From: a virus
Virus record (IMG/VR): IMGVR_UViG_3300033074_001684
Location: 1 to 24,060 of that record
Reading direction: 5' to 3' (one strand)
Length of the DNA stretch: 24,060 nt
Part shown: in pieces, positions 4,570 through 15,716 of the stretch
How the letters are laid out: every line of letters begins with the position of its first letter
Position numbering within the stretch: the first letter of the stretch is position 1
Position numbers and translations under genes: made by a program
The notes under the pieces: generated by a model
Seen by the model: the letters and a program-made list of their open reading frames with translations, nothing else
Told to the model about the DNA's origin: nothing
Database searches by the model: none

Positions 4570-6372
4570 TTATGCGTTAGCTAACACTGTCACAAAAATA
4601 TCCTCTGGCCGGATATACAAAATGTTATTACGTACTGGAATGATATCGTTCTCCGATGGACTCATTGTCACAGAAATGTTTCCGTCTGTGCCATCGAGGT
4701 AATACGGCATAAACTCCTGAAGAATTATTCTGCCTGTAGTGTAATCAACGGTTCCACAATCCCGAACAACTGCATTCGGCGTGCCGATACGGTGTTGAAC
4801 CATTTGAATAATTCCGTTACTATCATCTTGAAGTGTATAGGTGCATCCGTTTTGATACGGAACCAGCAGTTTAGGATCATGCACCGTCACAAAGCTGCTC
4901 GAAACCAAAGTTCCCGGCTTCACTGCATTATAATAGTCAAGTTGGTAATTTGCGATTAGATCAGAGGTTGGAAGTAAAACCTTCTTCATCGTAATTGTTG
5001 ACAAATTGTTTGTAATGCTCGTTTCACTGTTATCGATGGCAGACAGCAATTTGGAATATCGGAACTCCAGATCAAACTTGTCGAGATTTTCCGTCGAATA
5101 CGTTACAATAGCATCATATGCGGTTGTACGTATGTCACCTTCCGTCTTGAATGTGTTCGCCGGATTATATTTTACTGTACTGTTCACAATCAGGAAAGTA
5201 TAATCTGGGTCAAGAAATTCAGGGATAACAGAAACAACATTGCGCTTCCGAATGATGTTTTGTAGAACTAGTGCTTTAGCTTCTTCGGTAATAACATATC
5301 CCTCTACAGGCTTAATTGAAACGAAAACTTTTCCGTATTGTGGAGGAATATTTTCTTCACCACCCCAAACCGCAACCGAATCAGCATTGGTGTATTGTTG
5401 TTGCACTGTTGTAATATAATCTTTGGCTGTGACCGCTCGACCCTGTGCTTCATAATTTTTGGGCGCAGCGAACCGAATTTCTTCTGTCGTTTCCGCTTCA
5501 AGTCCACCCGCAGCAGGGACCAAAGTCGTCACACTAACCGCACGGACGGGATACCCAGCCACTGGAACATTCGGAGTAAATGACAACGCTCCGTTTGGAT
5601 TTGGACCATCGGAAATGATATAATCAACCACCACGACATTTCCGTCTGTCAATTTTTGACAAATGATACCATCACCAAATTTTACCTCGTACTTCTGGTC
5701 TTCCACTTCTTGCAAAAAGTACGCCTTTGTATCACTCTTCAATTCCAACAAATTATCCGCAAGGACATATGTGGTCAATGTTGTGTTAGATGTCGATGTC
5801 TGTACACGGACAGTAATGGCACGAGTATCGATCTTAGAACTAGGCAGAACAAACCTCTGATTTACAGCCTGAGAATTTACAGTAAACCTATACGTGTATG
5901 CCACACCTTGAATAAGAGTTACATCTGGATAGTTGAACACACCATTTTCAATAGTGGCTCCATACGCACGATCTGTAACAAAGTTGTAGACTGTTCCGTC
6001 AACGTTTGACCTAAATGGTGTATTCTTTTCAATAACTGCCGATGCTGCATTATCTGTAGGGATGATAACGATGCTAACACGAGCTTGCGCAGATGTGACC
6101 GAACGTGGGGTATAATTCAAATGCTTCGCCAAAGAAACCACAGACGATCTCATATTAGCAGAATCCAAGAACATTTCGTTAGCAATCATGTTCATGTAGA
6201 ACGCATTGTAGTGAGTATTGTACGCCAGGATATCAAGAAGCACCGAAATACTAGAACCCTCAAAGTCATAGTCTTTGAATTGTGACTGTGATCGTAAATA
6301 ATCACGTAAAGACGCTTTAAGAGTATCAAAGTCGAGGTAAGTTACGCTCAATTTGGATGTAGAAGTGCTCAT
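4570..6372 (-). CDS. gp6: baseplate wedge subunit gp6
   Basis: 600 aa. The N-terminus ...QFKDYDFEGSSISVLLDILAYNTHY...LRSSVV matches the T4 gp6 motif YDFEGS..NVL.DLLAYNT...LRSSVV. Its position between gp25 and gp7-like fits. Confidence 0.8.
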   Translation of the reverse strand: MSTSTSKLSVTYLDFDTLKASLRDYLRSQSQFKDYDFEGSSISVLLDILAYNTHYNAFYMNMIANEMFLDSANMRSSVVSLAKHLNYTPRSVTSAQARVSIVIIPTDNAASAVIEKNTPFRSNVDGTVYNFVTDRAYGATIENGVFNYPDVTLIQGVAYTYRFTVNSQAVNQRFVLPSSKIDTRAITVRVQTSTSNTTLTTYVLADNLLELKSDTKAYFLQEVEDQKYEVKFGDGIICQKLTDGNVVVVDYIISDGPNPNGALSFTPNVPVAGYPVRAVSVTTLVPAAGGLEAETTEEIRFAAPKNYEAQGRAVTAKDYITTVQQQYTNADSVAVWGGEENIPPQYGKVFVSIKPVEGYVITEEAKALVLQNIIRKRNVVSVIPEFLDPDYTFLIVNSTVKYNPANTFKTEGDIRTTAYDAIVTYSTENLDKFDLEFRYSKLLSAIDNSETSITNNLSTITMKKVLLPTSDLIANYQLDYYNAVKPGTLVSSSFVTVHDPKLLVPYQNGCTYTLQDDSNGIIQMVQHRIGTPNAVVRDCGTVDYTTGRIILQEFMPYYLDGTDGNISVTMSPSENDIIPVRNNILYIRPEDIFVTVLANA

Positions 6373-6800
6373 TATCTCAATCTCTCCAGAAAAACGGATA
6401 CCGTTTGCTGTGCCGTGATGTTTTCGATGTAAAAAGTGACAGTTACATCATATCCATTTTCTTCATAATTGGTCTTTACTGAAACATCACTTAACGTAAC
6501 TCTTGGTTCAAAATTTTGGATCACGTCCTGAATGGACCTCTTAATCGACAAAGCAGTGATGCTCGTAATGTTTTCAAACAACATCGCCATTACGCTACAA
6601 CCGATTTCTGGATGGAAAGGACGCTCATAATGTTTAGTACGAACCAAATTGACTACGGCAGATTTAACAGAATCAGAGTCATAGAGCATACCAATATCCT
6701 TCTTCACCGGATTGGGAAGGAAAAGTAAGCTGAAATCGCTATATCGATTGGAAATGTTCTGCGGCACACTTCTATTTAGTGCGGCAACTTTGGGTTTCAA
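6372..6800 (-). CDS. gp25: baseplate wedge subunit gp25 (GPW/gp25 family)
   Basis: 142 aa. RPFHPEIGCSVMAMLFENITSITALSIKRSIQDVIQNFEPRV aligns with T4 gp25 RPFDPEFGCDLSDQLFENMTPLTADTVERNIESAVRNYEPRI. Confidence 0.9.
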   Translation of the reverse strand: MKPKVAALNRSVPQNISNRYSDFSLLFLPNPVKKDIGMLYDSDSVKSAVVNLVRTKHYERPFHPEIGCSVMAMLFENITSITALSIKRSIQDVIQNFEPRVTLSDVSVKTNYEENGYDVTVTFYIENITAQQTVSVFLERLR

Positions 6801-13659: not shown

Positions 13660-13733
13660 TGGAGCGGGCACCGGGACTCGAACCCGGCTCTCAGGACTGG
13701 CAGTCCTGGGCACAACCGCTATACCATACCCGC
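13660..13733 (-). tRNA. tRNA-Gly(GCC)
   Basis: Reverse complement GCGGGTA...CAGGA CTGCCAG TCCTG...CCGGG TTCGAGT CCCGG TGCCCGC T CCA. The cloverleaf has a 7-bp acceptor stem and anticodon GCC. CCA is encoded. Confidence 0.85.
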
Positions 13734-13755
13734 AAAGGAAATGTGTGTAAGAAAT

Positions 13756-13829
13756 TGGAGCGGGACACGGGACTCGAACCCGTATCTCTAGCTTGGAAGG
13801 CTAGGGCACAGCCCTTATACCAGCCCCGC
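13756..13829 (-). tRNA. tRNA-Gly(UCC)
   Basis: Reverse complement GCGGGGC...CTAGC CTTCCAA GCTAG...ACGGG TTCGAGT CCCGT GTCCCGC T CCA. Anticodon TCC. Confidence 0.85.
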
Positions 13830-14399: not shown

Positions 14400-14642
14400 T
14401 TACTCTTCCAGTATACCACTGTTAACAGGTCTTGTCAAACCGTGGATTTTGCTCCGCACTTCCCGGGGAACGTCCATCACAACTTCTTTCCCGTTCATCA
14501 TAGCCCACAACTCAGGAGAGCACGCCAGGACGCCATTACAGCCTGCTAGAGCCTCGTCTTCGGCCTCTGCCATACGACGGAGCCATTCCTCATCCCGATT
14601 GCTTAAAACGCCTCTATTCGCTTCCACACGCACCACCTTCAT
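14400..14642 (-). CDS. hypothetical 80-aa protein (internal start of ORF 14400..14795)
   Basis: Chosen to avoid the 180-nt out-of-frame overlap with ORF 14614..15087. The alternatives are equally possible. Confidence 0.3.
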   Translation of the reverse strand: MKVVRVEANRGVLSNRDEEWLRRMAEAEDEALAGCNGVLACSPELWAMMNGKEVVMDVPREVRSKIHGLTRPVNSGILEE

Positions 14643-15087
14643 TTTCCCAAATATCAGTTCGATCCAAAATTCCCCACGGCAAGTACGGACAGTAGAAAAA
14701 TCCCTGGTCACAAGGATCTCTGCCCAAAGTCCACTCGCTAATGCAATACTGAAAATGTCTGTACGCCTTCTTTTCGTTTTCAGAAAGCTCGTCATACTTC
14801 AATGCTGCCAAAGTAGCGATCATTTCTTCCTGGACTTTATCTGACCAACGAGTGATTCCCTTATAGCCCATCTTGATGGGAGCATTAGGATCTTTCGCAA
14901 ACACTGGATCAATGTAGACCTTAATTTTGCCCAATTCATGATCGACTTTCACTCTGTCGTCTGCCCGTTGCTCAAACCCTAATCCAGTGAATGGAGAAAT
15001 GCCACATGCGCAGCACAATCCTGGTGCCCATTGGCCGGGATCAAGCTCTCCACCACAGTTTGTGCAAACAAGTTCGTTGTTCTTCAC
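14614..15087 (-). CDS. hypothetical 157-aa protein with N-terminal Cys cluster (CTNCGG..CCACG) resembling a zinc ribbon
   Basis: ORF with a GTG start at 15087, 30 nt downstream of the ArfB-like stop. Rich in Cys, Trp and Tyr. Confidence 0.45.
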   Translation of the reverse strand: MKNNELVCTNCGGELDPGQWAPGLCCACGISPFTGLGFEQRADDRVKVDHELGKIKVYIDPVFAKDPNAPIKMGYKGITRWSDKVQEEMIATLAALKYDELSENEKKAYRHFQYCISEWTLGRDPCDQGFFYCPYLPWGILDRTDIWENEGGACGSE

Positions 15088-15116
15088 GATGTAATCTATA
15101 CTCCACCGTTTTCAAG

Positions 15117-15470
15117 TTATTCCACCTTGATAGTTCCGTCTTTCAAACCTTCATCCACCATACGATTCACCCGTTCACGAATCTGTTCTGGTGTTTCTTC
15201 GATTCTCTGCCCCATCCGTTTGGCGCATTCGATCCGATGCCAGTCTTTGAACTTTTTGGTTTCCACAAGACGCCGGAACGCAGCTTCCCGATTTTTGCTG
15301 TTGGTTCGATGTTCCCGCCCTTCACCAACAGCACCGGATGCTCTATGAATCAGGCGCACTCCGCTATTGGACGTGTCCTTGCCACCGCCACCGTTGCCAC
15401 CAACAGTGAACGTTTGAATATCAAAATCTTTCTTTGTGACTGAAAAAAGTAGTTGCCATTGCTTATCCAT
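15117..15470 (-). CDS. ArfB (YaeJ)-like RF-1-domain protein, peptidyl-tRNA hydrolase family, with the catalytic GGQ glutamine missing
   Basis: GGAGGA SD 7 nt upstream of ATG 15470. [28 protein letters not shown] aligns with ArfB [45 protein letters not shown] aligns with YRSQELNREAALARLVA. The GGQ region reads GGNGGGG and contains no Gln. Confidence 0.75.
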   Translation of the reverse strand: [117 protein letters not shown]

Positions 15471-15675
15471 TTTCGTATCCTCCACGCACACACGTATCCC
15501 ATCAGAACGGTTACCGGGCTAGGATGGATAATGGAACAGCATAACGGTATATAGTCACTTGATTGCGCCGCACAGCATACCGACAATGAGTACGAGACAA
15601 ATCAATGCCGTGACCGCAACATTTCGAGCGTTTTCGTTCAGATTCAAATCTAGTCTCATGTCTTCATTATAACAC

Positions 15676-15716
15676 AAAAGCGGGCGACCCCTTTCGGAAG
15701 CCGCCCGTCTGATTTT
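15676..15716. terminator. GC-rich hairpin with flanking T- and A-runs; candidate bidirectional intrinsic terminator just downstream of the MVP gene
   Basis: CGGGCG (15681-15686) and CGCCCG (15702-15707) flank a 15-nt loop. AAAAG precedes it and TCTGATTTT follows on the plus strand. On the minus strand, CTTTTGTGTT follows. Confidence 0.5.

Follow-up and report, generated by a model that had tools for sequence, protein, structure and literature searches.

Here, we describe a small phage gene that encodes a stand-alone release-factor catalytic domain in which the glutamine of the GGQ motif has been replaced, as a family trait, by one of the smallest residues within a new and strongly conserved loop, GG[G/S]GKDTS. 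The gene, which we call the mini-RF gene, occupies positions 15117..15470 on the minus strand of the window (the whole 24,060-nt stretch of IMG/VR record IMGVR_UViG_3300033074_001684 analysed here) and is an open reading frame of 117 amino acids. The protein belongs to a known phage RF-1 family and presents the release-factor catalytic domain in a new form; in our full-text literature searches, no Gln-less protein of this kind from a phage was described. We give about an even chance to its being a codon-independent peptidyl-tRNA release factor with a remodelled tip for which the Gln is dispensable. To our knowledge, GGQ is regarded as universal among the factors that free peptides from ribosomes. 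What its glutamine does has been under debate for two decades, the options being water coordination, packing, or a contribution of the backbone amide only.

The assignment to the release factors rests on profile and fold comparisons that agree. The Pfam RF-1 model (PF00472) matches residues 9-72 with 38.8 bits against a gathering cut-off of 35 (E=1e-9), and PHROG 3122, annotated as "RF-1 domain peptide chain release factor", matches residues 7-83 (E=1e-18). An AF2 model built from 31 family members has a mean pLDDT of 85 and predicts strands at residues 16-23, 35-42 and 48-51 and helices at 57-69, 72-86 and 94-111, that is, the three-stranded sheet, long loop between strands 1 and 2, and following helix of the release-factor fold. 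Foldseek against the PDB gave GGQ domains for all of its 50 best matches (RF1, RF2, mtRF1/mtRF1a, PrfH, C12orf65, YaeJ), and the best matches by sequence and fold together are to domain 3 of RF1, RF2, mtRF1 and PrfH. Thus the previous recognition of a release-factor catalytic-domain protein, made from the letters of the DNA, is borne out by a Pfam score above cut-off and by the predicted fold. The full-length models are touched only in part: the NCBIfam RF1/RF2 models score 28-34 bits against cut-offs of 370-423 and align over model positions ~210-290 only, and the PrfH model TIGR03072 scores 25.7 bits against 166.65 over model positions 103-181 only. We regard the protein as a free-standing domain 3 of the RF1/RF2/PrfH type that carries a short helical C-terminus of its own. 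The helix at 72-86, with its conserved basic and aromatic residues (F74, W77, H78), is an obvious candidate for an RNA-binding surface.

We draw a distinction between this protein and ArfB, after which the earlier note had named it. ArfB/ICT1 is likewise a stand-alone catalytic domain with no codon reader, which is the mode of action that we propose for the window protein. Two features define the ArfB/ICT1 family, however (PMC3950681): the alpha-i helix, which is an insertion, and a long, basic C-terminal tail, which reaches into the empty mRNA channel as a probe and is needed for ribosome binding and activity. Between its strands 2 and 3 the window protein lacks the alpha-i helix, its alignment with E. 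coli ArfB showing a 22-column gap there, and it also lacks the basic tail (ArfB residues 100-140 hold 16 Lys/Arg against 3 Asp/Glu); ArfB also keeps GGQ, whereas the window protein has no such Gln. With the ArfB equivalog model of NCBIfam (NF006718) reaching only 10.6 bits against a cut-off of 100, the ArfB-like label falls away. RF1/RF2 domain 3 and PrfH, the best matches, are likewise without the alpha-i insertion, but the window protein lacks domains 1, 2 and 4 of RF1/RF2 as well as the N-terminal, decoding-centre-binding domain of PrfH, and should therefore neither read stop codons nor sense a damaged decoding centre.

The C-terminus is indeed unlike the basic probe of ArfB, as had been noted, since residues 70-117 hold 12 Lys/Arg against 11 Asp/Glu. 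Its description as an acidic tail is right for the last 27 residues only (pI 4.7) and wrong for residues 70-90, which are basic (pI 10.0), the region as a whole being roughly neutral; the entire protein has a pI of 9.8.

The closest known company of the window protein is its own family in PHROG 3122, whose phage proteins (such as Tunturi_4 gp53, EniyanLRS gp129 and Alice gp197) are of the same size, consist of one catalytic domain, and share with it a short helical C-terminus bearing conserved F..W and ...NLKxE motifs. The size typical of the family is ~110-150 amino acids. Its proteins from cultured phages are 34-44% identical to the window protein and have GGQ, whereas the window subfamily has GG[G/S]GKDTS.

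The start of the gene is marked by a perfect Shine-Dalgarno sequence, GGAGGA (15478..15483, minus strand), 7 nt upstream of the ATG at 15470, which favours the 117-residue product over initiation at a GTG at 15491; antisense open reading frames on the plus strand over 15117-15470 are without support. The motif strings VRLIH and GGNGGGG, previously read from the letters, are both present in the translation. At the other end, the TAA stop (15117-15119) is followed in frame by a vestigial tail, LENGGV, and a TAG (15096..15119, minus strand; translation DGTIKVE*LENGGV*). In a DNA alignment with three related loci (L025, L026 and L004), which read ...GAATAT CTT GA. ... TAG at the end of the gene, the TAA stands at the position of a Tyr codon (TAT) of the homologues and removes 7 residues, while the codons after it still match the ...EYLENGGV* tail of the homologues. 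From this comparison the TAA appears to have arisen recently as a nonsense change, or to be a variant of the assembly. The missing tail varies among family members, many of which end in ...VEE or ...EEF. A homologue on another contig (L012, IMGVR_UViG_3300021170_000008, 5923-6426) carries, in a locus with 27 tRNAs, an in-frame TAG as its codon 17, a position taken by Asp or Glu in the family; as regards stop-codon recoding at either the window TAA or this TAG, there is no suppressor tRNA among the tRNAs called.

The absence of the catalytic Gln is the central observation, and it does not depend on how the loop is aligned. The loop that stands in place of the GGQ loop is encoded by codons 24-34 (15369..15401, minus strand, located by ungapped alignments). 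In phmmer alignments with RF1 and mtRF1 chains, the GGNGGGGKD of the query pairs with KGAGGQHVN, ungapped through the loop and at maximal posterior, so that G27 and G28 align to the Gly-Gly of GGQ and Gly29 falls at the position of its Gln; ungapped alignments to GGQ-type relatives agree. Codon 29 is GGT (15384-15386, minus strand). The Gln residues of the protein are at positions 4, 6, 19, 88 and 96 only, and with none between 19 and 88 a Gln in the loop is impossible under any alignment. The hand alignment of the earlier note was thus not shifted: the check that could have overturned it, an alignment placing a Gln in the catalytic loop, was run and places Gly29 there, and the reported lack of the Gln stands on several ungapped alignments that agree in register. 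The loop also loosely resembles a P-loop (G-x4-G-K), a resemblance that we treat as coincidence because Asp, and not Ser or Thr, follows the Lys.

Is the loss of Gln peculiar to one phage? A search through 5.8 billion proteins yielded 364 homologues. The best 120 are 63-85% identical to the window protein and come from metagenomes, on contigs of up to 400 kb. Position 29 in these 120 is Gly in 91, Ser in 26, and Cys, Ala and Gln in one each, so that the question whether homologues also lack the Gln can be answered with yes for the close family (119 of 120). Around it, G27 (120/120), G28 (119/120), G30, K31, D32, T33 and S34 are each found in at least 118 of the 120, giving a near-invariant loop of the form GxGG[G/S]GKDTS. 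The loop region is the most conserved 11-residue stretch of the protein, with a mean major-residue frequency of 0.94-0.97 against 0.76 elsewhere. At the DNA level, the loop codons of 15 genes vary synonymously (GGT/GGC/GGA/GGG, AAA/AAG, GAT/GAC, ACN, TCN/AGY) while the peptide stays constant, and Ser29 is encoded by both AGY and TCN codons among them. The loss of Gln is a family trait, and the new loop is under strong purifying selection. It is the opposite of what is found in catalytically inactive release-factor homologues (Dom34, most baeRF-1 families and the MRPS35-type domain), which also lack the Gln but have loops of low conservation (PMC6514570).

A profile search of 1.84 billion cluster representatives extended this picture, with 1,717 hits at E<=1e-3. 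Nearly all of the best 150 are small proteins (~70-260 amino acids), and GGQ is present in 120 of them. The variant loop, GG[S/G]GKDTS, occurs in 17 of these 150 and in the window protein, with Ser twice as common as Gly. Six more of the 150 have a canonical xxNKT loop except for GGS or GGT in place of GGQ, a sign that Gln may have been lost independently in further cases. Outside the loop, R39, H42, S45, G46, A47, R55, N60, A64, F74 and W77 are conserved in both loop types; within it, positions 22-23 and 29-34 have changed together in the variant group. The homologue of L012 has a longer C-terminus with an RF1/RF2-like IRTYNF...DHR...LDG segment, which points to descent from a full-length factor.

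As regards distribution, the family members from cultured phages, among them Tunturiibacter phages Tunturi_3 and Tunturi_4 and many mycobacteriophages (e.g. EniyanLRS gp129, Alice gp197), keep GGQ. Scans with GG[G/S]GKDTS patterns found no relative in 185,579 species-representative bacterial and archaeal genomes, while relatives, mostly of the variant-loop type, are encoded on 16 viral contigs of IMG/VR that measure 20-242 kb; the variant therefore appears to be restricted to phage-type sequences. One GGQ pattern alone returned 189 viral loci, and the 80 of these that were listed show no overlap with the contigs carrying GG[G/S]GKDTS genes.

The two loop types can nevertheless meet at one locus. 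Locus L025 is syntenic with the window, with a 73% identical major-vault-protein (MVP) homologue, the same tRNA-Gly(tcc)/tRNA-Gly(gcc) pair and gp5 downstream, and its mini-RF (P0113) has a canonical GGQKQNST loop. P0113 and the window protein are identical at 72 of 99 positions (73%) outside residues 22-34 and at 4 of 13 (31%) inside them (Fisher p=0.004). A GGQ-type protein at the syntenic locus implies that both loop types substitute for each other in closely related phages. Conversely, proteins only ~45-50% identical to the window protein share exactly its variant loop, and long and short C-termini occur with both loop types, as far as a noisy regular-expression measure can tell. A neighbour-joining tree of 68 non-loop columns did not recover the GG[G/S]GKDTS group as a clade, and yet the group is slightly more self-similar than random (0.47 within against 0.44 between, a difference reached in 5 of 2000 permutations). 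This pattern suggests mosaic evolution or loop exchange, and sequences this short would fit a single origin with later exchange of the loop as well as repeated events. In L025, an Endonuclease VII-domain gene (2086-2751) is inserted between the MVP and mini-RF genes and overlaps the start of the latter. This insertion, beside the locus at which the loop type differs, may be a mobile or homing element.

The window derives from a T4-like myovirus, with homologues of gp5, gp25, gp6 and baseplate-wedge proteins, and the cultured phages closest to it in gp6 are Pelagibacter phage HTVC008M, Methylophilales phage Melnitz and Caulobacter phage Cr30 (36-40% identity). The upstream neighbour of the mini-RF gene encodes an MVP homologue of 839 amino acids (15726..18245, minus strand; Pfam MVP_shoulder, E=4e-20) that carries the MVP shoulder and vault repeat domains. 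It is 73-78% identical to its syntenic metagenomic relatives, and its matches in the GenBank phage collection are confined to uncultured huge phages of 462-735 kb (LR756500, LR756501 and LR756503; 37-38% identity). The mini-RF gene lies downstream of the MVP gene, as stated previously, but not directly so: it starts 255 bp downstream, and the gap holds a strong, intrinsic-terminator-like hairpin with a T-rich tail (15671..15707, minus strand). The hairpin itself (15707-15681) pairs over an 11-bp stem, 8 pairs of which are G-C, and its tail reads CTTTTGTGTT. MVP adjoins the mini-RF gene only in the lineage of the window (L004, L025, L026/27) and is absent from the other 23 loci. We considered a functional coupling to MVP and rejected it on these two grounds, the lineage-limited adjacency and the hairpin between the genes; the link to MVP is one of lineage-specific synteny only.

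No conserved partner gene was found, as the immediate neighbours in the window and in L004, L005, L007, L001 and L002 are dissimilar, except that the window and L004 are syntenic. In the region just downstream of the mini-RF gene (14400-15087, minus strand), a 157-residue Cys-rich open reading frame (CTNCGG...CCACG) is zinc-ribbon-like and has no Pfam hit; it overlaps a 131-residue open reading frame, the C-terminal part of which is homologous to a 76-residue gene at the same position in L004.

What does recur near these genes is RNA of the translation apparatus. The window has 9 tRNAs (ARAGORN and Rfam), all on the strand of the mini-RF gene (Gly twice, Ser three times and Leu four times); the two for Gly, a tRNA-Gly(gcc) and tRNA-Gly(tcc) pair downstream of that gene (13660..13829, minus strand; ARAGORN, Rfam), are syntenic in L004, L025 and L026. 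The tRNAs of the window lie at 13660-13829, 18505-19967 and 21647-23713 on the minus strand, grouped by amino acid with small open reading frames between them; only Gly, Ser and Leu are represented, and there is no single compact array. Among them lies a gene for an FkbM-family methyltransferase (19077-19865, minus strand) with a weak TRM5/TYW2-like hit, found at the same relative position in L004 and L026.

Elsewhere in the family, several mini-RF loci lie inside arrays of 7-27 tRNAs. In raw counts, tRNAs occur within 6 kb of the mini-RF gene in the window, L004-L007, L025, L026 and 10 of the 16 IMG/VR loci, and within 3 kb in 5 of 11 variant loci and in 18 of the 80 GGQ-type loci listed. The proximity of tRNAs is frequent and not universal. 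The GGQ-type gp53 of Tunturi_4 has a permuted tmRNA directly downstream, detected with ARAGORN and with the Rfam model RF04321 (79 bits; cut-off 47). This tmRNA lies at L001 6263-6832 (PP885687.1, about 43441-44010) and is missing from the annotated features of that record. Mycobacterial tRNA arrays are reported to have an RF-1 domain gene among their core genes, alongside Pth and tmRNA (PMC5966550). With tRNA arrays and tmRNA nearby, the context of the family is one of translation maintenance and ribosome rescue.

In light of a conserved tip without Gln, what might the window protein do? Our leading explanation is that the mini-RF would enter the A site of ribosomes that have halted during infection with peptidyl-tRNA on board, for instance through codon starvation or damaged tRNA or mRNA, and would insert its glycine-rich tip into the peptidyl-transferase centre, releasing the nascent chain without codon reading and making the ribosome available for phage translation. 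In the window subfamily this tip would have been remodelled from GGQ-x-x-N-K-T to GG-(G/S)-G-K-D-T-S with both backbone-shaping glycines retained, and catalysis would proceed through the backbone amide at position 29 together with the ribosome and the tRNA themselves, the Gln side chain and its methylation by host PrmC being dispensable. Release without the Gln side chain would therefore also be release without host PrmC methylation. Ribosome binding, hydrolytic activity and the choice of target ribosomes are what we infer here. Shaw and Green reportedly found in 2007 that small substitutions of the Gln cut hydrolysis modestly and abolish the preference for water.

The literature on the canonical motif offers some ground for this. 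The glycines of GGQ take backbone angles reachable by glycine only, and any mutation of them abolishes release, while the Gln side chain is assigned a "packing role" (PMC5799190); catalysis itself is ascribed to the backbone amide of the Gln (PMC6742477, PMC5378476). Besides packing, a part in selecting the nucleophile has been given to the side chain. The invariant glycines, the tiny residue at position 29 and the invariant flank thus make a tip that still promotes peptide release the best-supported reading. Several points count against it. Nothing in the mini-RF is recognisable as a part that would sense an empty A site or mRNA channel; the Gln is kept in 120 of the best 150 clusters and so is normally selected; mutation of each GGQ residue of RF1/RF2 is lethal in vivo (PMC9589212); and tRNAs lie close to many of these loci but not to all.

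Other proteins bear on the question from different sides. mtRF-R (C12orf65), one of the Foldseek matches, is also a small GGQ-domain protein with no codon reader; it works with a partner, MTRES1, on split large subunits, as presented in the structure entry (PDB 7a5h). It keeps GGQ and has that partner, whereas no conserved partner gene was found for the mini-RF of the window. Engineered RF1 mutants with GGS and GGD (PDB 9mtr, 9mtq) have been captured in 70S complexes and are laboratory constructs in full-length RF1, which may have been made because they are impaired and would then tell against Gln-independent release; GGS is also the tripeptide commonest in the wider GG[G/S]GKDTS group.

The same evidence can be read in other ways. 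The earlier note had suggested that the protein cannot hydrolyse peptidyl-tRNA in the canonical way and could be a decoy or regulator. In its fuller form, this holds that the protein is a non-hydrolytic binder of the A site and peptidyl-transferase centre, a plug or decoy that would block host release or rescue factors, hold ribosomes or protect peptidyl-tRNA. The absence of an otherwise universal Gln, the lethality of Gln mutations in RF1/RF2 and the lowered efficiency of GGQ mutants (PMC9589212) are all in keeping with such a role; the coordinated changes at positions 22-23 and 29-34 look like a change of function; and Dom34, the baeRF-1 clades and the MRPS35-type domain are non-catalytic, Gln-less precedents (PMC6514570). 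However, the loops of those precedents are degenerate, whereas here the loop is the best-conserved segment and both glycines of the catalytic geometry are invariant. A GGQ-type orthologue at the same locus of a sister phage fits an equivalent function better than an opposite one, and tRNA arrays and tmRNA point to keeping translation going, not to blocking it. To conclude that hydrolysis is impossible is to over-read the loss of Gln when the essential glycines are invariant and the literature assigns catalysis to the backbone amide; we consider a decoy role unlikely and treat it as a minority reading.

A change of chemistry or substrate is a further option, in which an open pocket at position 29 would admit a nucleophile other than water, or the substrate would be another ester, such as that of an aminoacyl- or adduct-bearing tRNA, or else the peptidyl-tRNA of split 50S subunits. 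GGQ mutations are said to lower efficiency or to admit other, non-specific nucleophiles in a passage that cites Shaw and Green 2007 (PMC9589212), position 29 is limited to the smallest residues while the loop gains an invariant Gly-Lys-Asp-Thr-Ser, and the fold matches that of C12orf65/mtRF-R with its action on split large subunits. The argument is purely inferential, though, with neither a partner enzyme nor a conserved neighbour gene found, and Ser29 is excluded as an essential nucleophile because Gly replaces it in most members. We regard altered chemistry or substrate as distinctly improbable. That the gene is a decaying, non-functional remnant or a mis-called open reading frame is hardly credible: the premature TAA of the window copy, which costs it the last 7 codons of its homologues, and the in-frame TAG of the L012 homologue would fit decay, but the number of homologues (364), their strongly conserved columns and synonymously changing codons, the intact Shine-Dalgarno sequence and a confidently predicted fold speak against it, and the lost tail is variable across the family. 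The conservation data effectively refute gene decay.

Beyond a release factor that can do without its Gln, GG[G/S]GKDTS might be a purpose-built, phage-only catalytic tip, suited to Gln- and PrmC-free release with relaxed choice of nucleophile or to some other use of the peptidyl-transferase centre. We offer this as a tentative and somewhat unlikely idea. If the tip were purpose-built, its alternation with GGQ orthologues at one locus is what would be expected under a conflict between phage and host over translation.

Thus, the GGQ rule has a natural exception in a large, strongly selected, phage-type family that keeps the two glycines and replaces the Gln by the smallest residues. The GGQ-type orthologues at the same locus in sister phages are ready-made controls, and such a matched pair of variant and GGQ proteins could reveal whether nature runs peptide release without the Gln. 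The same pair could give a first function to the phage "RF-1 domain" genes, which are widespread and keep company with tRNA arrays and tmRNAs.
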